A DNA stretch of 46,534 bases from a virus (taxonomy: Duplodnaviria; Heunggongvirae; Uroviricota; Caudoviricetes): the IMG/VR virus record IMGVR_UViG_2667527666_000009; one strand, written 5' to 3'. The notes under the pieces were generated by a model, which had not been told where the DNA came from, did no database searches, and saw only the letters and a program-made list of their open reading frames with translations. Shown here in pieces: positions 1 to 11,345 of this stretch. Made by a program: the position numbers and the translations under genes. The first letter of the stretch is position 1; each line of letters opens with the position of its first letter.

Positions 1-1284
1 TTACAGACTTCTGGAAGGTTGCGCAGCTCTTACAACACGCGGTTGATCTTCCGCAGCGTCTTCCAGCGCACTTAAATCACGGTCTTTCACCTCTGGCATT
101 TTCAGCGCAGAGATTAAACCAATCACTGAATATGCCATGATCATAATGGCGATCGGATACCAGGATTCCGTCATGGTGCAGAAAATACCCGCCAGGATAG
201 GACCAAAACCGGAAGCGATAAGACCACCAATTTCTTTAGAAATAGCCATCCGGGTAAAGCGGTTTTTACAGCCGAACATTTCTGCCATGGTAATGTTTTC
301 CAGAGCAAATAATCCCAGCACCGCACAGTTATGAATCACAATCAGTGCAACCATAATGGTGCTCGGGGCATAGCTTTTATCTACAATGATAGAAAGCATT
401 GGCCATGCCAGCACAATCGCGGAGGTATTCATAATAATATACGGGATCCGGCGACCAATTTTATCGGATAACCAACCAAGGAACGGAATGGTCATAAAGC
501 CGAGAATCGAACTGATCATCAATGCATCTGTTGGAATTGCTTTGTTAAACAATAACGTCTGCACTAAATAGCCTGCAAGGAAAGTCTGAATTAACCCGGA
601 GTTACCCGCCTGACCAAAACGCAGCCCTGTTGCCAGCCAGAAGGATTTGCTCTGGAACATGCTACCAGCAGGTGCAGGTTTTGCTGTCGGTTGGTTACTG
701 TCGTTAACCTTCTCAAAGACCGGGCTTTCTTTCAGATTCATACGCAACCAGATAGCAAAGACCATCACGACAACGCTCGCCAGGAACGGTATACGCCATC
801 CCCACGCCAGCAGTTCCTCTTTACTGAGAATGAAGAACATAAAGGCCCAGATTGCCGTTGCGCTCAAGGTTCCGCAGTTAGTTCCCATAGCCACAAATGA
901 GGAGATAATTCCGCGCTTACCTTTTGGCGCATATTCCGCCAGCATCGTACCGGCACCGGAAATTTCCGCACCTGCACCCAACCCCTGAATAATACGCAAC
1001 GTCACCAGCAAGATGGGTGCAAAAACACCAATCTGTGCATAGGTCGGTAACACACCAATTAAGGTGGTACAGATCCCCATCATGGTGATGGTAATAAAGA
1101 GCACTTTTTTACGCCCTATTCTGTCGCCCATTTTGCCGAAAATAAATGCTCCGACAATACGCGCCACATAACCTGCACCGTAGGTTCCCATTGCCAGAAT
1201 TAACGCCATTGCCGTTGATGATTCAGGAAAAAATATTTCATGAAACACTAACGCTGCGCCGAGCGAATATAACTGGAAATCCAT
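1..1284 (-). CDS. ydfJ: MFS-family transporter, host gene lacking its N-terminal region at the prophage boundary
   Basis: 427-aa ORF with MFS transporter character (many hydrophobic segments, GxxxDRxGRK-like motif); compared with sugar/shikimate-type MFS proteins the first transmembrane segment appears missing, consistent with interruption by prophage insertion. Confidence 0.75.
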   Translation of the reverse strand: MDFQLYSLGAALVFHEIFFPESSTAMALILAMGTYGAGYVARIVGAFIFGKMGDRIGRKKVLFITITMMGICTTLIGVLPTYAQIGVFAPILLVTLRIIQGLGAGAEISGAGTMLAEYAPKGKRGIISSFVAMGTNCGTLSATAIWAFMFFILSKEELLAWGWRIPFLASVVVMVFAIWLRMNLKESPVFEKVNDSNQPTAKPAPAGSMFQSKSFWLATGLRFGQAGNSGLIQTFLAGYLVQTLLFNKAIPTDALMISSILGFMTIPFLGWLSDKIGRRIPYIIMNTSAIVLAWPMLSIIVDKSYAPSTIMVALIVIHNCAVLGLFALENITMAEMFGCKNRFTRMAISKEIGGLIASGFGPILAGIFCTMTESWYPIAIMIMAYSVIGLISALKMPEVKDRDLSALEDAAEDQPRVVRAAQPSRSL

Positions 1285-2618: not shown

Positions 2619-3209
2619 ATGTCTCGAATTTTTGCTTACTGTCGGATATCAACGCTGGATCAGACCACCGAAAATCAACGCCGGGAAATCGAAAGTGCAG
2701 GTTTTAAAATCAAACCTCAGCAAATAATCGAAGAACACATTAGCGGCTCAGCAGCAACCAGTGAGCGTCCTGGTTTTAACCGGTTGCTTGCTCGCCTGAA
2801 ATGTGGTGATCAATTGATTGTGACAAAATTGGATCGCCTTGGTTGTAATGCAATGGATATCAGGAAAACAGTGGAACAACTGACCGAAACAGGTATCAGA
2901 GTGCATTGCTTAGCATTGGGGGGCATTGACCTGACCAGTCCAACAGGAAAAATGATGATGCAAGTAATTTCAGCAGTCGCTGAATTTGAACGAGACCTTT
3001 TACTTGAACGCACTCATTCCGGGATAGTAAGAGCCCGGGGCGCAGGGAAACGTTTTGGTCGACCACCTGTGTTAAATGAAGAACAGAAACAGGTGGTATT
3101 CGAACGGATTAAGTCAGGTGTAAGTATAAGTGCCATTGCCCGGGAATTCAAAACCTCGCGGCAAACCATTTTAAGAGCCAAAGCAAAACTTCAGACACCT
3201 GACATATAA
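2619..3209 (+). CDS. pinQ: serine-recombinase DNA invertase (Pin/Gin/Hin/Cin family)
   Basis: 196 aa; N-terminal catalytic motif YCRISTLDQ (resolvase/invertase active-site Ser) and C-terminal HTH. Confidence 0.9.
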
Positions 3210-3436
3210 AAAATAATCTCGGTGTGAGATGCTTTACGTCTTCCAAGCCCCCTTCCTTGCCGTAAATGGAAAGATACATCTAATTATAGAATTTATATGT
3301 TTTACCCTACGGCAGTGCTGGCCATTCAATATCCTGTGCAGTTGACGTATCAACACGGTTCAGCAACACCCGATACTTTTTCCTGGCTTCCAGCAACGGG
3401 GTTTCTTCCTCCGTTGCATATACAGCTCACCTTTTT

Positions 3437-3730
3437 TCACCCACGATTAACCAACAGCCAGATCAGCAGACACGCCACCACCGGCACAGCAAAATCCATC
3501 AGGCTTGCCACATCCCAAACACGCGGATCAAAACCGCCCCACCACGGCATGTTAATCCGCTTGCCATGCCCGAACATTTCAATCCAGCGATATTCTGCCT
3601 GGGTGTGTTCACGCGCAATGAAGAACGTACAACCAGCTATCGCCCCATAAGCCCAGTTTCCGGTAAAAAGACCAACCAGTGTCTGCGCAGCCACAGCACA
3701 AAGCGCATGAAGAAAAGGTGTTATATCCAT
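3437..3730 (-). CDS. hypothetical small inner-membrane protein, last gene of the tail-fibre operon
   Basis: 97 aa with two or three hydrophobic helices; starts 11 nt after the upstream gene; no family recognised. Confidence 0.45.
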   Translation of the reverse strand: MDITPFLHALCAVAAQTLVGLFTGNWAYGAIAGCTFFIAREHTQAEYRWIEMFGHGKRINMPWWGGFDPRVWDVASLMDFAVPVVACLLIWLLVNRG

Positions 3731-3740
3731 TACTCCTCCT

Positions 3741-4445
3741 TTATCTAATATCGCTTCGGGAAGTTAATAACAACTTTAATTCTGACTCAAGTTCATCAAC
3801 TCTTTCAGTCAGTTTCTGGATATGGTGAATCAGTGGAACAACCAGACGTTCGTACATTACACCTTCGGCAACAAGGCCATTGCTGGAAATAGCTTCAGGA
3901 GCATCATCTTCGTTAGCTGGTCGCCAGTGTACAAACTGAGGAGCAATTTCTCCTACTTCCTCGGCAATCAATCCGTAGAATCCCCAGTCACGCCTGTCAT
4001 TTTCGCATTGCGACCTGTACCACACAGGGCGCATCCTGAAAATGAGATCGGCGTGCTCTGAATCTATTGTCTCTACTGAATGTTTATAGCGGATAGACGA
4101 TGTTGACCGCAGCACAGACGAAATTGCACGGTCAGGATTAAGATAAAGGTTTGCCGCCGCTGTAGTCGTGGCCAAATTCCATAAATAAAACGCTTCACGA
4201 CCTGTCAGTGGATAAAAATCTCCGCCATAACGACCACTTTCCAGATCGTTCACTTCCACTTTGTTTTTCAGCTTATTATCAACTTCAGTTTTTGTGTATC
4301 TGGAGCTGATATCCTGCTTTGCACTGGTCATCTCAGTCTGAAGCGTTGATACTTTTCTGCTAATTGATGAAATATCTTCCTTAGCTTTACTGACATCCCC
4401 CTTTAGCTTGGTGATATCTCCTGGAATTACTGTCGATGTAGCCAT
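3741..4445 (-). CDS. tail-fibre-like protein with coiled-coil N-terminus and peptidase-S74-type intramolecular chaperone domain
   Basis: 234 aa; N-terminal heptad-rich region (KLKGDVSKAKEDISSISRKVSTLQTEM) then a C-terminal segment resembling the autoproteolytic chaperone domain of tail spikes/fibres (SSIRYK..., GFYGLIAEEV..., terminal coiled coil). Confidence 0.6.
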   Translation of the reverse strand: MATSTVIPGDITKLKGDVSKAKEDISSISRKVSTLQTEMTSAKQDISSRYTKTEVDNKLKNKVEVNDLESGRYGGDFYPLTGREAFYLWNLATTTAAANLYLNPDRAISSVLRSTSSIRYKHSVETIDSEHADLIFRMRPVWYRSQCENDRRDWGFYGLIAEEVGEIAPQFVHWRPANEDDAPEAISSNGLVAEGVMYERLVVPLIHHIQKLTERVDELESELKLLLTSRSDIR

Positions 4446-4454
4446 TTTCCTGCC

Positions 4455-4736
4455 TCACATCCAGCCACGAAGTTGATGCTCAACAACAACCGCGTATTTA
4501 TCGAATATTGACGATTTTTTTGCATCATTAATGATGCGCACGTTTACAAAATATCCGTCTTCCTTAACACATACCGGCTCGCCATCTTCAGTAAGTTCTC
4601 CGGTTTCTTTGTACACGTTACCTATCACGTCAATAAGAATATCATCCTGCATCGACTCGTCATCATAATAGCCAGCACTCTTCATAAAGGCCGAAAAGTC
4701 GGCCTTGTCTGTGAATTTGATAATTAAATCTCGCAT
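4455..4736 (-). CDS. hypothetical protein translationally coupled to the side tail fibre gene (possible fibre assembly factor)
   Basis: 93-aa ORF; its ATG overlaps the stf stop codon (TAATG on the minus strand at 4734..4738). Confidence 0.45.
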   Translation of the reverse strand: MRDLIIKFTDKADFSAFMKSAGYYDDESMQDDILIDVIGNVYKETGELTEDGEPVCVKEDGYFVNVRIINDAKKSSIFDKYAVVVEHQLRGWM

Positions 4737-7120
4737 TATATTATCTCTCCCATTTGCGCATCGGTTAATTCTTTATGCCATATTCTAAAATTCCTGATAT
4801 AACCAAATAAATGACGTAAGCCGGCTGTAGTCTGGCCTCCAATCCTTATACCTGTAGCACCACTAACACTCTTCCACGTTGTTGATGCTGGTGTTGATAA
4901 AACCCCATTGCAGCCAGCCTGAAACTTGCCATCGCTTTTTATTCTATATACAGCGATAATCTTTCTTGGGTAATTTCCAGGTGGAAATGATATTGGATTA
5001 CCAAATTGAACATATGGAGTTCCTACACTACCTGCTGTATTTCTGAATGCAAAAACAAAAGCGTCGTCTTTTGTTTTAAATCCTGTTATATCATAAATTC
5101 TAGGCGCGGAATTTGGTGCTATAGACCAATTTTTATTCACTTCAACCATGCAGGTTAAAGGTTTGCTGGCCATGTTATTTTTACAAGGCAATGTAACAAT
5201 ATCGCTTGCTCGCGTTGATGCAACTGTATCGGAAATGATAAAAGATGATGCGCATGAGCCGCCTTCAAATTGTGGTGTCGTAACATCCAAATATTCCCCG
5301 CCCAAATAAGTTCCAGGTGAAACAGGTGGAGCAATTTGGATCTGAGAGCCAACCATATTATCAATAGCTTCAGATTGATATGTAACCTCGAAATAAATCC
5401 ATCCATTAGATTCTTTCTCCGCTCGGGCGGTTATTCTTGCAGCCCCTCCTCCCGTTTTCCTAATGGACATATCTGTTATATTAAGATATGCATCTGCCAG
5501 ATAAAAATATGCGGACCCGTCATATCTTTCAAATCTTATACGACATTGTATATTAGCACTATCGCTTTTTACACGACATGATGTTGTAACATACTTTTCA
5601 GTTCCAGTAACATCGACACCTCTTCCTCCTGAAACCGCAGCGATATTCATTGTCGTATTTGTCCCAATTTTTTCGTCCTTTATTTGAAACCGCCCATAAG
5701 TAAAGCCAAACTCATCAACACCACTTTCTGTTATAGTTACACTTGTTGTAGCTCCCCACTTAGATGGCGTAAGTGAATTAAGATGATAGTTGGTTCTTTG
5801 TCCTTCAATCAGCAAACCTTCTCGTTCAAATCGCGGTTCGTCAACTTCAGCAACGGTTAATACTCCTGATTTATTAATGTATGTTGCACCTGATGCGCGT
5901 TTGAAGCTAACAACCTTATCGGATGGCATTTTAATAACATCATCACCTACAGTTATTTGCTTATAACCAGGCGAAAAGCCAGCAAGCATATCCAGTGAAT
6001 CGTTAAACGGTATCCACACATCGGGAAGCGGCTGCAAAACTTGTTTATACGGCTCCGCAGCCTGGCTTGCATACTCTCTGGCTGCGTCTTCACTTGCTTT
6101 TGCAGCCGTCTGGCTTGCAGCGGATGCTTTCGCCGAGTTAGCCGCCGCAGTCTCGCTCGCCTTTGCGTTGGTTTCACTGGTTTTTGCAGCTTTTTGACTG
6201 TTGGCTGATGCAGTGGCAGAAGAAGCCGCCGCACTTGCAGAACCAGCTGCGGCACTCTCGCTTTGGGCCGCTGCATCCTGACTGTTTTTCGCCGCAGTTT
6301 CGCTGGCTTTGGCATTCGTTTCGCTGGTCTTCGCTGCCGTCTGGCTGGACTTTGCGTTAGTTTCACTCGTCTTCGCTGCTTTCTGACTGTTAGCCGCAGC
6401 AGTTGCTGATCCAGCTGCTGAAGTCGCAGAACCGGCTGCCGCGCTCTCGCTTTGGGCTGCTGCAACCTGGCTGTTTTTTGCCGCAGTTTCACTGGCTTTG
6501 GCATTCGTTTCGCTGGTCTTCGCTGCCGTCTGGCTGGACTTTGCGTTGGTTTCGCTCGTCTTTGCGGCTGTCTCGCTGTTTTTCGCGTTGGTTTCTGATT
6601 TTTTGGCTGCTGTCGCGGAGTTTGCCGATGCAGTCTGTGAGGTCGCTGCCGCCTGTGCGCTGTTAGCTGCATTCGTTTCTGAGGTTTTCGCCGCGTTCTT
6701 CGATGATGCCGCTGCAGTTTCGGATTTCTTTGCCGCCGCTGCGCTCTGAGAGGCGGCTTCGGCGTTGCGTGCCGCTTCTTCCACCATTTCCTCAAAACGG
6801 CGCAATGCCTCCGGCATGACATCATCTTCCGTCATGGCACCGAGAAAATCATTCAGCGTACCTGGTCTGGAACCTTCATAGACGGTAATGGTCCCGGCAT
6901 GTGAAGGCGGAAAACCTTCAACCAGCAGGGTGACGCTGTACTGGCCATACTCAACATCCATGCTGTAACGTCCGGCTTCATCCGGATTTTCAGAAGCCAC
7001 CGTGTTCACCAGTACCGTGGTGCTGTTACGCTTTGCCTTCAGTTGAATAGTGCAGTTCTGTATTGGTTTTCCCGCACCATCTTTCAGCACACCTGAGATT
7101 TTTACTGCTGCCATATCCAC
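4736..7120 (-). CDS. stf: side tail fibre protein (lambda Stf-like N-terminus, Ala/Ser/Thr-rich repeat shaft, lectin-like C-terminal domain)
   Basis: 794 aa; N-terminus AVKISGVLKDG...GRYSMDVEYGQYSV...HAGTITVYE matches lambda Stf; central low-complexity repeats; C-terminus has a laminin-G/concanavalin-like motif (FRIWHKELTDAQM). Confidence 0.85.
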   Translation of the reverse strand: MDMAAVKISGVLKDGAGKPIQNCTIQLKAKRNSTTVLVNTVASENPDEAGRYSMDVEYGQYSVTLLVEGFPPSHAGTITVYEGSRPGTLNDFLGAMTEDDVMPEALRRFEEMVEEAARNAEAASQSAAAAKKSETAAASSKNAAKTSETNAANSAQAAATSQTASANSATAAKKSETNAKNSETAAKTSETNAKSSQTAAKTSETNAKASETAAKNSQVAAAQSESAAAGSATSAAGSATAAANSQKAAKTSETNAKSSQTAAKTSETNAKASETAAKNSQDAAAQSESAAAGSASAAASSATASANSQKAAKTSETNAKASETAAANSAKASAASQTAAKASEDAAREYASQAAEPYKQVLQPLPDVWIPFNDSLDMLAGFSPGYKQITVGDDVIKMPSDKVVSFKRASGATYINKSGVLTVAEVDEPRFEREGLLIEGQRTNYHLNSLTPSKWGATTSVTITESGVDEFGFTYGRFQIKDEKIGTNTTMNIAAVSGGRGVDVTGTEKYVTTSCRVKSDSANIQCRIRFERYDGSAYFYLADAYLNITDMSIRKTGGGAARITARAEKESNGWIYFEVTYQSEAIDNMVGSQIQIAPPVSPGTYLGGEYLDVTTPQFEGGSCASSFIISDTVASTRASDIVTLPCKNNMASKPLTCMVEVNKNWSIAPNSAPRIYDITGFKTKDDAFVFAFRNTAGSVGTPYVQFGNPISFPPGNYPRKIIAVYRIKSDGKFQAGCNGVLSTPASTTWKSVSGATGIRIGGQTTAGLRHLFGYIRNFRIWHKELTDAQMGEII
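6060..6760. repeat. tandem repeat array inside stf; two near-identical 189-bp units (core 6291..6358 and 6480..6547) flanked by diverged copies
   Basis: direct comparison of the two cores shows a near-exact match at an offset of 189 bp (63 codons), giving repeated KTSETNAKSSQTAAKTSETNAKASETAAKNSQ-type peptide units. Confidence 0.8.
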
Positions 7121-7178: not shown

Positions 7179-7778
7179 TCAGAATTTATAACCGACACCC
7201 ACGATGAAACCGTCAGTGCGCCAGTCACCACTGCCGGAGCCTTCATAAGCAATATCAATGGCCACGGATTCGGTCGGGTTAAACTGCACGCCAGCTCCCC
7301 ACGCCAGAGACGTGTTGCTGTGGCGATCATCATCACTTCCGGTCAGCACATCGTGCGTTTTCCCCTTGTTGTCAGTTACGCGGAGATAATCCCCGGAGAA
7401 CGTCGAAACACGGCTGTAAGCCATACCTGCCATCGCATAAGCACTGAACCATTCATTCACGCGTACAGATGGCCCCGCCATCATGCTGAACCAGCGGTTA
7501 CGCACTGAATCTTCATGCCAGCGGGTATCGCTGTAATGCGTTTTTTGCTCATCTTTGGCATTGGCATAACTGAATGACGTCACCAGCCCCAGCGTGTCCG
7601 TAAATTCATAACGGTATTTCACGTTAATCCCGTTCAGATTATCGCTGCCGGGAACGTTCGTCGAGGCATGAAGATACCCCGCGCTCAGCGTGGACTGATG
7701 TTCAGATGCCCATGCAGGCGCACCGGATACGGCCAGACAAATGGCTGCGGACAAAATGGCGGCATAAAGTTTACGCAT
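7179..7778 (-). CDS. lom: Lom outer-membrane protein (Ail/Lom/PagC beta-barrel family)
   Basis: 199 aa with signal peptide, alternating beta-strand pattern and terminal aromatic residue (GVGYKF); position immediately downstream of J as in lambda. Confidence 0.85.
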   Translation of the reverse strand: MRKLYAAILSAAICLAVSGAPAWASEHQSTLSAGYLHASTNVPGSDNLNGINVKYRYEFTDTLGLVTSFSYANAKDEQKTHYSDTRWHEDSVRNRWFSMMAGPSVRVNEWFSAYAMAGMAYSRVSTFSGDYLRVTDNKGKTHDVLTGSDDDRHSNTSLAWGAGVQFNPTESVAIDIAYEGSGSGDWRTDGFIVGVGYKF

Positions 7779-7847: not shown

Positions 7848-10800
7848 TCAACGAATACTGATGCCGGAAGCGGCTTTTTTGGTCACAATCACCGTACAGT
7901 CGGTGATATTACCTGCCCGCTGATTGCCTTTATGGAAAACCTTAAACTCCAGAGTGACGCTTCCCCTGCCACTCGGCATATCAATAACCGCACTGTAGCT
8001 ACCGGGAATGGCCCCTTTAGTTTCTCTGGATGCGATTAATACACCGTTTTTGCGAACTTCAAAACCATAACCCGTGTATCTTGTACCTCCCGGGTTATTA
8101 CCACTTCCCGGATCGCTATACGCTATTCCGTTAAAGATAATGGGCGGAATAATGATTTGACGGTCAAAGTTATGATCATCGCTGATGGTGACTGTAACCG
8201 TCCCGTTTGGTGTTTCCGTGTTACCCCACGTACCAGCCTGTTTCGGAAATGATTTGGATACAGCTTTAACGAAGTCACCTCTGACCTGAGTCGCCTCCAG
8301 CATGCCCTTAATCGTACAGTTTTCATTTACCGTGACATTGTTGAGCGTCCCGGCGTTCGCATTCACACTGCCACTGATATCCGCATTTTTAGCGGTCAGC
8401 TTTCCGTCCGGTGTCAGGGAAAATGCCGGTGGATTTCCACCACTGGTAATGGTCGGGGCCGTCAGGCGTTTCAGGAACACGTCGTTCATGAATATCTGAT
8501 CGCCCTGACCAACAAACATCGGTTTTGTGTTGCCATTCGCAGGATTAACCATCGCAATCCTGTCCGCCGCCAGCAGCACCTGACTCTGCATGCCGTCAGG
8601 GGTGTTCTCAATACCGGCACCAATACCCGCGATATAAAGGCGTCCGTCCTGCATCTGCTGCAGCTTCACAGCCCACATGCTGTTCAGGTTATTATTTGTA
8701 TCAACCTGAACCTTCTGTATCTGCTGAATTGCCGCACTCTGGTCTTCCAGTTTCTTATTGACGGTCTGCGTGATTTCATTGCTGACATGCGTAATGGACG
8801 TCCTGATTTCAGCCAGGTCAGGCGCAAGCTGACCGTTATCAATCTGCGTCCACAGCTCCTGAGCCAGATGGGTTTTCCCTATCTCGCCTTTGAAAAAATC
8901 CAGATAACCGGATGCATCATCACTCGGCTGACCAACAGCCTCCACGAATGCCGATTTGCCGACGGTGTTCACACTGCGAACGTAAAAATAATAATCATGG
9001 CCCGGTTTGATATTGATACTGGCAGCTATCCAGTACAGCGCCGTACCAAGATAGCGGGCTGTGGTTTCAACCTGCCTGATATCCGCAATCCGCTTTTCCG
9101 AGAACCAGAACTCAAACTGTACCGTCGGATCATAAACGGCAAGATGCGGCGTTGCGGTTATCTGAAAATAGCCCGGCGTCAGCTCAATCCGCGACGGTGC
9201 TGCCGGTGCGGCAATCCGGAACGATACCGATGCCGGATCGCCCTGCTGCCCCCAGGCATTTGCCGCCCGGACTGTCAGCCTGTAGTTTCCCAGCGCCAGT
9301 TGCGTGAAGCGGTATGTGGTTTCCGTCGTCCGGGCCGTGCTGACCAGCCGCTCACTGCCGTCGTCTGCTGCCACAGTCAGGCGAAGCATAAAGCTCACAC
9401 CCTTCACCACCTTCGGCGTGTCCCATCGCGCCAGCACCTGATATTCCCCGCTGTCTGCAGTGACTTCGGCGGTCAGATGCTGCACTGCTGGCGGCGTGAC
9501 ACCATTCACCGTGCCGCTCTGGTCACCGTCAAAGTGCGCCCCGTTATCCACGATGGCCTCTTTCTCCGGCACATGCTGCACGGCAGTGATGGCATACGTG
9601 CCGTCGTCGTTCTCACGGATACTCACGCAGCGGAACAGGCGCTGGCGCAGCGTCGGCAGCTTAAGCCCCCACACGCTGTATTCAGCAACACCGTCAGGAA
9701 CCCGGCTCACTTTTACCTTCACGCCGTCGGTGACGGACTGAACCTCCACGCTGACCGGACTCCCCTGCCCGTCAACCAGGCTTATCAGCGTGGTGCCGGA
9801 GGCTGGCAGCGTGATTTCACGGTCGAGCGTCAGTGTCCGCGTCTGGCTGTTCACCGCCAGCACGCGCCCACCGGTGCTGATGCCCGCATAGTCATCATCG
9901 CAGATTTCAATGACATCGCCCGGTACATGGCGAAGCCCTTCGGCACCCACGCTGAAGTCCACGGTCTGCGTTTCCAGCAGTTCTGTTTTAATCAGCCACA
10001 GCCCGGCTCGGTGCGCCTGCCCCCGACTGGTACAGCCAAACGCATCCATCTTCGTGACGTTACGACCGTAACGGGCAATGGCCTGCGTGTCCTCCACAAG
10101 CTCTGTCGCCGTCTCCCAGCCGTTATCCGGGTCAATCCAGTTCACCTCAACGGCATTATGGCGGTCCTTGAGGGCGCTGAAGCTGTAGCGGAACGGCGCG
10201 CCATCATCCGGCATCACCACATTACTGCGGTTATAGGTCCACACCTTATCCGACGGCCGGTCCTGCACGAACGTCAGCGTCTGCCCGTTCCATACCGGCA
10301 TACAGCGCATCGCCGAGCAGAAATCACTGAGCACATCCCACGCCTTGCGCTGTGTGGTCAGGTACGCATTACAGGTGATGCGCGGCTCCGTGCCGCCAAA
10401 GCCGTCCGGCACTGACTGGTCGCAGTACTGGCCGATGACATACAGCGCCCATTTGTCCACATCCGCCGCACCAAGACGTTTCCCCATGCCGTAGCGTGGA
10501 TGGGTCAGCATATCCCACAGACACCAGGCCATGTTATTGCTGTATGCTGGCTTAAACGTTCCGTCCCAGATACCGCTGTATTGCCGCGTCTGCGGGTTAT
10601 AGTTCGACGGCACCTGCAGAATGCGCCCGCGAAGATGATAATTACGGCTCACCTGCTGGCTGCCGAACTGCTCCGAGTCCACCTGCACGCCGACCAGTGC
10701 CGTGTTCGGGTAGCACTGTTTCACATCGATGATTTCTGTGTATGACGACCAGAGCGTTTTGTTCTGCAGCTGGTCTGTGGTGCTGTCCGGCGTCATCCTG

Positions 10801-11345
10801 CGCATCCGGATATTAAACGGGCGCGGCGGCAGGTTATCCACCACCACCGAGGCCAGATACTGCGACGTGGTTTTGCCCTTAATGGTGATGTCTTTTTCCG
10901 TCACCCAGCCACCGTTACGCTGTATCTGAACCAGCAGACGGACTTCCGACGGATTCCTGTCACCCTTTGAGGTGGTTTCCACCAGTGCCTGCACACCGAA
11001 GGTAAAGCGCAGACGGTCGATGTTTGCAGACGTGATGGTCCGGGTAATCGGCGTGTCGTACTTCACTTCCGTACCCAGCACCGTCTCGGAGCCGGAGGAT
11101 TCAAACCCCTCCGGCGGTGTCTGCTCCTGCTCACCTGCCCGGAACACCACCGTGACGCCGGAGATATTGGTATTCCCCTCACTGTCCAGCACTGGCGTAC
11201 TGTTCAGCAGCACACTTTTTAATCCGTCCACCGGACCTTCAATCGGCCCTTCACTGATGGCGTCTATCACGCTCAGCATCTGGGATGATTTCAGGTTGTC
11301 CTTCGCTTCGCGCGGGGTATGCCCCTTACTGCTGCCTTTACCCAT
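7848..11345 (-). CDS. J: tail tip host-specificity protein J (central fibre)
   Basis: 1165 aa; N-terminus [20 protein letters not shown]... and overall length match lambda gpJ; position between I and lom. Confidence 0.9.

Follow-up and report, generated by a model that had tools for sequence, protein, structure and literature searches.

A short protein with a self-cleaving S74 chaperone domain is probably a minimal distal or branch subunit of a prophage side tail fibre

The intramolecular chaperone (IMC) domains of the K1F endosialidase, GA-1 gp12, and the T5/DT57C L-shaped fibres belong to proteins of 800-1400 aa whose bodies are large and beta-helical or catalytic, whereas a 234-aa protein encoded two genes behind the side tail fibre of a lambdoid prophage has a cargo of only 115 aa ahead of a domain of this type. 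The question is what so short a protein does, and whether it is a structural subunit of the fibre, an assembly factor for the fibre encoded beside it, or a leftover of an older fibre gene. A sequence-only reading of the window, by which we mean the whole 46,534-nucleotide stretch of viral DNA analyzed here (IMG/VR record IMGVR_UViG_2667527666_000009), had offered two suggestions, a remnant of a second fibre and a trans-acting trimerisation chaperone, and we consider both below.

The locus lies in a lambdoid morphogenesis region on the minus strand (J, 7848-11345; lom, 7179-7778; stf, 4736-7120), which is reached from the left end of the window through a truncated ydfJ, ydfK, and pinQ. The genes discussed here, in which pos2, pos3, and pos4 denote successive positions behind stf, are as follows.

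4736..7120, minus strand: Stf, side tail fibre, 794 aa, matching PF08400 and the NCBIfam GTA_spike_fiber domain
4455..4736, minus strand: pos2, 93 aa, phrog_1361, overlapping the stf stop by 1 nt and translationally coupled to stf
3741..4445, minus strand: pos3, putative short tail-fibre protein, 234 aa, an ORF with an ATG start and with Pfam and PHROG matches
3437..3730, minus strand: pos4, 97 aa, hydrophobic (three such segments), phrog_1443, with a strong AGGAGG Shine-Dalgarno sequence, 10 nt after pos3
about 3307-3417, minus strand: truncated tfa (tail-fibre assembly) pseudogene, adjoining pinQ
2619-3209, plus strand: pinQ-type serine invertase
1-1284, minus strand: ydfJ (MFS transporter), its N-terminus missing at the prophage insertion point

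E. coli B/BL21 and other strains have a Qin-position prophage to which the segment from 3400 to 4800 is 99.9% identical, and the ydfJ insertion site is the attachment region of the Qin prophage in K-12 and B strains. In BL21 and BL21(DE3) IS3 interrupts the homologous stf, while that of the window is intact. The pinQ gene lies 230 nt past the end of the fibre genes, beside the truncated tfa, and a search for inverted repeats flanking this region and pinQ gave no convincing pair, the best being 21 nt with 81% complementarity inside coding sequence; Pin-mediated inversion with an alternative fibre exon was therefore ruled out for want of usable repeats. This pinQ looks like an orphaned invertase, left behind after the present fibre genes replaced an invertible stf/tfa segment. 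In phage Tritos, pin and ydfK likewise lie downstream of the corresponding genes. Between the pos3 gene and stf there are no internal promoters or terminators above shuffle expectation.

Stf itself has a lambda-type N-terminal domain that matches the Ur-lambda tail fibre 9e7m, followed by Ala/Ser/Thr-rich coiled-coil repeats and a lectin-like distal head. The coiled-coil shaft, rich in Ala/Ser/Thr ('KTSETNAK'), is the product of a 189-nt tandem repeat at 6143-6580 (2.3 copies, 83% match), and long ORFs in other frames of this repeat (e.g. 5953-6825, 290 aa, Arg/Gln/Pro-rich) are by-products of its composition. The ORF of pos3 follows the stf-coupled gene as the sequence-only reading had it, except that the spacer between the pos2 stop and the pos3 start is 9 nt, not 10; a Shine-Dalgarno sequence (GAGG/AGGA) precedes the start. 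The protein matches phrog_3299 (E 2.8e-136), and its parts, in order from the N-terminus, are these.

4386..4445, minus strand: N-terminal anchor motif, aa 1-20 (MATSTVIPGDITKLKGDVSK), conserved across pos3 proteins with otherwise unrelated bodies
4308..4415, minus strand: five-heptad coiled coil, aa 11-46, its heptads unbroken, from the count of a/d positions and an AlphaFold2 helix
4101..4238, minus strand: pre-cleavage segment, aa 70-115 (SGRYGGDFYPLTG...NLYLNPDRAISSVLRSTS), 46 aa, from conserved columns in alignments A1 and A2
3744..4100, minus strand: Peptidase_S74 IMC domain, aa 116-234, from Pfam, PDB sequence search, alignments, AlphaFold2, and Foldseek

The C-terminal domain is a bona fide S74 IMC. 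Residues 116-172 match positions 1-57 of the 58 in Pfam PF13884 (Peptidase_S74) with a score of 27.5 bits (gathering cut-off 22, E 3.9e-6), and phage homologues at the pos3 position score 47-55 bits with the same profile. A PDB sequence search with pos3 finds the C-terminus of 8hqz_d, a 1076-aa L-shaped tail fibre chain of the DT57C type. In an AlphaFold2 model built with 37 homologues, aa 120-233 have pLDDT values of 83-93 and the domain closes with a long C-terminal helix (aa 199-233); the best Foldseek match of this model in the PDB is the MyRF/MYRF ICA (7dc3; E 2.8e-5, probability 1.00, 26-27% identity), followed by weaker matches (E 0.1-1) to the phage IMC structures 3gud and 3gw6. The motif SSIRYK supplies Ser116 (codon 4098-4100) and Lys121 (codon 4083-4085), which, like PVWYRS and G-x-IAE, are invariant in alignments of 24 and of 37 homologues with identities as low as about 30%. 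The spacing of this dyad is that of S578/K583 in MYRF and of the endosialidase dyad, and the S74-type dyad and its trimerisation-dependent cleavage have been described (PMC3742443). Family, Ser-x4-Lys dyad, fold, and terminal helix are all shared with the K1F endosialidase (3gw6), GA-1 gp12 (3gud), and the T5/DT57C fibres (8hqz). With the dyad intact, autoproteolytic release of the domain is predicted. MYRF is a eukaryotic membrane-bound transcription factor whose N-terminal cargo is unrelated to pos3, and shows that an S74-type domain can trimerise and release cargo other than a spike (PMC3742443). The proposal of a stand-alone gene for a coiled coil and an S74-type domain is thus upheld: the Pfam similarity is significant, the Ser-Lys dyad is present, the fold matches, and the a/d positions of the coil are hydrophobic in 11 of 12 cases over aa 11-46.

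The coil is shorter than had been supposed, at about 40-60 aa rather than roughly 80 aa of the 115 that precede the IMC. AlphaFold2 places helices at aa 11-47 (pLDDT about 80), 52-62, and 65-69, and coil length differs among pos3 homologues, as it does in fibre shafts. What follows is a conserved 46-aa segment, aa 70-115, which is presumed to be non-helical and to form a trimeric beta structure; the AlphaFold2 monomer is unconfident over aa 62-116, with pLDDT below 50 in this segment. It is the best-conserved part of pos3 outside the IMC, with T94, N99, and R113 invariant or nearly so, and it resembles the C-terminal tips of fibres of 539-1243 aa. Neither Pfam nor PHROG nor the AlphaFold2 model reveals any domain besides S74, and a receptor-binding body was not found between anchor and IMC, where there is only the coil (aa 11-62) and the 46-aa segment. 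Within its class pos3 is therefore a minimal variant.

The N-terminus of pos3 has a different distribution from the rest. All pos3 versions start M-(A/V/T)-T-x-T-(V/I/N)-I-P-x-D-I-x-x-L-K, with M1, T3, T5, I7, P8, D10, I11, L14, K15, V18, and S19 invariant in alignment A3, and the same motif heads IrisVonRoten Gp24, the JenP2 protein, and KarlBarth gp30. The N-terminal ~20-30 aa are all that genes at the pos3 position have in common, and two PHROG matches (phrog_4563 and phrog_19752) are confined to this end of pos3. In contrast, when pos3 was compared with 1.84 billion cluster representatives, aa ~45-233 were found to recur at the C-termini of long fibres (539-1243 aa) with 55-60% identity. 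Among them is a lambdoid Stf of 735 aa that shares its PF08400-type N-terminus with the Stf of the window, and one long fibre (P0186) ends almost identically to pos3 (...HHIQKLTERVDELESELKLL). This recurrence suggests that pos3 consists of an anchor plus a terminal module that is common in fibres, made up of a YTKTEVD-type short helix, the conserved tip segment, and the IMC.

The same resemblance could be read as the mark of a non-functional leftover, in which pos3 would be the 3' end of an older S74-terminated Stf that acquired a fortuitous in-frame start after recombination replaced the distal part. The surroundings lend this some plausibility, since the region is mosaic, with the orphan pinQ and truncated tfa adjoining, and many host prophages are no longer intact, with a frameshift or an IS element in stf. 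However, of 5426 complete E. coli genomes about 740 contain the 705-nt ORF at full length and free of indels, with nucleotide identities of 93-100%, and it is annotated as an intact CDS in the E. coli records listed. Pairwise whole-gene dN/dS among six copies is 0.07-0.26, and in most pairs it is about 0.1-0.26 both for the first 115 codons and for the IMC half; the exception is the N-terminal part in one close pair with few substitutions (0.82). The Shine-Dalgarno sequence and operon spacing are good, and the N-terminus is a motif common to other fibre genes and not a random start. Moreover, homologues with 56-60% identity and the same gene order, most of about 221-231 aa, are present in dozens of virulent T1-like Drexlerviridae, in whose compact genomes a decaying fragment would not be expected to be kept. 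The leftover reading is largely refuted and we regard it as very improbable: pos3 is an intact gene under purifying selection. The earlier suggestion of a remnant of a second fibre thus holds in so far as pos3 would be a second fibre protein bearing the terminal module of a long fibre, and fails as to decay.

Comparison with other phages shows that pos3 is the third member of a mobile cassette, made up of a fibre with a lectin-like head, a protein of ~92 aa, and an anchor-bearing protein, that crosses phage families. In the product of the third gene the N-terminus is conserved and the body variable, and an S74 IMC is usually present. The cassette is found in the lambdoid phages IdasGreatGrand, Tritos, and PhiR47_1; in the Drexlerviridae phage PeterMerian (Bas05), as a lateral tail fibre, a 92-aa protein, and a 231-aa S74 protein; in the Queuovirinae KurtStettler and JenP2 and in a metagenomic contig of 60 kb (L004); and in the T5-like IrisVonRoten as gp22-gp23-gp24. 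The cassette extends to Dhillonvirus as well, where KarlBarth carries the pos3 anchor. Between the window and PeterMerian, identity is 43% over the distal ~560 aa of the fibre, 46% in pos2, and 56-58% in pos3, whereas the N-termini of the two fibres differ, that of the window being lambda-type (PF08400) and that of PeterMerian T1-type; the mobile unit is thus the distal fibre head together with the two downstream genes. Across cassettes, the distal 440 aa of Stf are 44-55% identical.

Third-gene products are 231, 234, 268, 294, 346, 348, 510, and 574 aa long. PF13884 is present in all three that were scanned (Tritos, KurtStettler, and PhiR47_1), and S74-type sequence is recognizable by eye in those of JenP2 and IrisVonRoten. 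The nature of the variation is clearest against Tritos, whose pos2 is 85% identical to that of the window: the first 32 aa of pos3 are 62% identical, and past residue 32 the two proteins are unrelated (27%), the IMC excepted. A swappable body behind a conserved N-terminus is what fibre subunits that dock on a conserved partner typically show.

Gene order and a 9-12-nt spacing between pos2 and pos3 are the same at all 13 junctions compared (window 4446-4457 and its equivalents in L001, L002, L004, L007-L009, and L011-L016), which represent nine distinct phages or contigs and four near-identical E. coli prophage copies. At each of the 13 the two genes are in the same reading frame, with a spacer of 9 nt (12 nt in two) that has no in-frame stop, and this strict arrangement could hint at a functional pairing of pos2 and pos3. 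The pos2 genes of the lambdoid clade end in TGA and the others in TAA; programmed read-through from pos2 into pos3 was considered and judged unlikely because many pos2 stops are TAA. In KarlBarth, gp30 has the anchor on a body without obvious S74 sequence, and this 98-aa ORF overlaps a 196-aa 'putative tail fiber protein' (gp31) by 8 nt (L018 3770-4649); a frameshift may have split a single fibre gene here, or the two ORFs may encode a distal fibre in two parts with no obvious S74 domain.

The neighbours of pos3 differ from it in distribution. The pos2 gene is present in 186 phage records, always directly after fibres bearing a lectin-like head, and these records include lambdoid, T1-like, Dhillonvirus, Queuovirinae, and T5-like siphoviruses and rV5-like myoviruses. 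It matches no Pfam or NCBIfam family, and its AlphaFold2 model, from a shallow alignment (>=81% identity), is of alpha/beta type, possibly ferredoxin-like, with low confidence (mean pLDDT 64) and has no significant match in the PDB, with weak ferredoxin/PII-like matches (E above 0.04). It is plausible that pos2 is a dedicated helper or adaptor of the lectin-like fibre head, and if anything in the cassette is such a helper, pos2 is a better candidate than the S74 protein. In turn, pos4 is restricted to lambdoid versions of the cassette, in phages and prophages, and absent from Drexlerviridae and virulent phages, and is a candidate lysogeny-associated membrane protein, for example one of superinfection exclusion.

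Could pos3 nevertheless act in trans? As an assembly factor or stabiliser of Stf, it would bind the proximal fibre through its N-terminal peptide, promote or stabilise trimerisation, and then leave or stay as a clamp, with no role in receptor binding. Several features are in keeping with this. Stf has no PF13884 match in a Pfam scan and no Tfa of its own, mature pos3 has no recognizable receptor-binding domain, and the minimal form is the version kept in many virulent Drexlerviridae. The annotators of the BASEL genomes gave pos3 homologues the label 'putative lateral tail fiber chaperone'. In DT57C, moreover, the proximal fibre protein LtfA seems to be unstable without LtfB (PMC4728585). However, two phages have the fibre head and pos2 yet lack pos3: in the temperate Lambda_ev203, Stf and pos2 are followed directly by a 97-aa membrane protein homologous to pos4, and in the rV5-like JeffSchatz the same fibre head (...IRIGGQTATGERHLFGHIKDIRVW...) and pos2 are followed by unrelated genes. 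The fibre head thus does not require the S74 protein. In relatives, large receptor-binding bodies ride on the pos3 anchor, up to a fibre of 574 aa; the IMC domains that have been characterized act on the N-terminal sequence of their own chain (PMC3742443); and Pfam and NCBIfam searches matched pos3 to no family of known trans-acting chaperones (lambda Tfa, T4 gp38, and gp57A). The trans-acting chaperone suggested by the sequence-only reading is unlikely as an obligatory function, and a non-essential stabilising role is possible; overall, we consider it unlikely that assembly of Stf is what pos3 is for.

Published fibre systems supply models for a structural role. IrisVonRoten (Bas32) Gp24 is, like pos3, the product of a third gene, 9 nt after a gene of ~92 codons behind a lectin-head proximal fibre, and its N-terminus (MVTKTVIPTDITKLK) has the same motif as that of pos3 (MATSTVIPGDITKLK). 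By AlphaFold-Multimer prediction it is a T-shaped distal fibre that has two receptor-binding domains, ends in an IMC, and is mounted on the proximal fibre Gp22, which has a galectin-like domain at its C-terminus (PMC11990801). The end of Gp24 is S74-type sequence by eye (SDSRLK, then GVIAQQVE), although of a different IMC subtype from that of pos3, with SDSRLK in place of SSIRYK, and its 574 aa with two receptor-binding domains contrast with the coil and 46-aa segment that lie between anchor and IMC in pos3, which is accordingly not a typical Gp24-type member. A second precedent is the branched two-protein lateral fibre of DT57C, established genetically, with an autocleavable pfam13884 domain on each subunit (PMC4728585); structural work is compatible with it (PMC10713586). 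DT57C LtfB and phiEco32 gp15 are, like pos3, second fibre proteins whose genes lie just downstream of the primary fibre; N-terminal attachment to the primary fibre has been proposed for them, and here too pfam13884 is on each subunit (PMC4728585). Unlike in the cassette, no ~92-aa gene separates ltfA from ltfB; LtfB is much longer (788 aa), is genetically required on O81 hosts, and has an N-terminus in which no similarity to that of pos3 was seen by eye. The RBPseg tail-fibre class TC7 (members RBP_13 and RBP_33), whose N-terminal region is a coiled coil and which carries peptidase S74 at its C-terminus, has by its description a pos3-like architecture (PMC12143355).

Taking these lines together, we favour, with a probability of about 0.6, the interpretation that pos3 is a minimal distal or branch subunit of the prophage side tail fibre. 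Three pos3 chains would associate through their IMCs, as expected from the established behaviour of S74 domains, and trimerisation would nucleate or template both the coiled coil and the 46-aa segment that follows it. Next, the IMC would cut itself off at Ser116, to give a mature chain of aa 1-115 (~12.7 kDa, pI 8.9) and an IMC fragment of ~13.9 kDa. T4 fibritin (wac) is comparable in that it, too, is a coiled-coil fibre of three chains, and a small trimerisation domain at its C-terminus nucleates folding, as proposed for pos3; unlike the S74 domain, to which it is not homologous, the foldon of fibritin stays uncleaved. Through its M-A-T-x-T-V-I-P-x-D-I motif the mature pos3 trimer may dock either onto Stf, the proximal fibre, or onto the 93-aa pos2, a step suggested by the modular conservation of the cassette and by the published model of IrisVonRoten Gp22 and Gp24. 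Once docked, it would act as a short terminal stub or branch, at the place where the anchor of its relatives bears full receptor-binding domains.

With a mature part of 115 aa and no recognizable receptor-binding domain, the word 'fibre' may overstate what pos3 contributes to the virion. The mature protein might instead cap the end of the proximal fibre as a trimeric coiled coil that processes itself, controlling the stability or deployment of that fibre, and be no adhesin. We regard this as doubtful, although if it were true an S74 IMC would here be building a trans-acting structural regulator and not a receptor-binding fibre. At the opposite extreme, pos3 could be a true minimal receptor-binding fibre in which aa 70-115, exposed on release of the IMC, form a small adhesin tip for a conserved surface glycan; this is a sub-case of the structural-subunit interpretation. 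The binding tip of T5-type fibres does lie directly upstream of the IMC (PMC11990801), the segment occupies the distal end of long fibres, and its conservation, with T94, N99, and R113, fits a functional surface of this kind. However, 46 residues per chain is far below the size of characterized tips, the equivalent ~42 residues of MYRF are expected just to form a triple beta-helix chaperoned by the ICA (PMC3742443), and strong conservation across hosts is atypical of receptor-binding regions. A mini-adhesin seems to us rather improbable, though less so than a leftover, and we continue to prefer the minimal distal or branch subunit.

We found no paper in the literature searched in which the pos3 protein is tested; the Nature 2024 paper on stf chimeras and the proteome of the T1-like phage SH6 both concern other fibre types. 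The pos3 family is widespread and annotated, and pos3 belongs to a known class of which it is an ordinary, though uncharacterised, example. That a fibre subunit should carry a trimerisation domain that cleaves itself off is expected biology and will be a small surprise to specialists, and the value of the analysis lies rather in correcting two tempting readings, 'gene remnant' and 'chaperone', of a gene carried by about one complete E. coli genome in seven and by many T1-like phages, and in two useful outputs, the definition of the cassette and the recognition of a portable N-terminal anchor. This side-fibre cassette crosses the boundaries between temperate and virulent phages and between siphoviruses and myoviruses. 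In relatives, distal bodies of very different kinds are carried on its ~20-aa anchor, and this anchor is a candidate plug-in handle that could serve the engineering of side fibres on lambda-like delivery particles.
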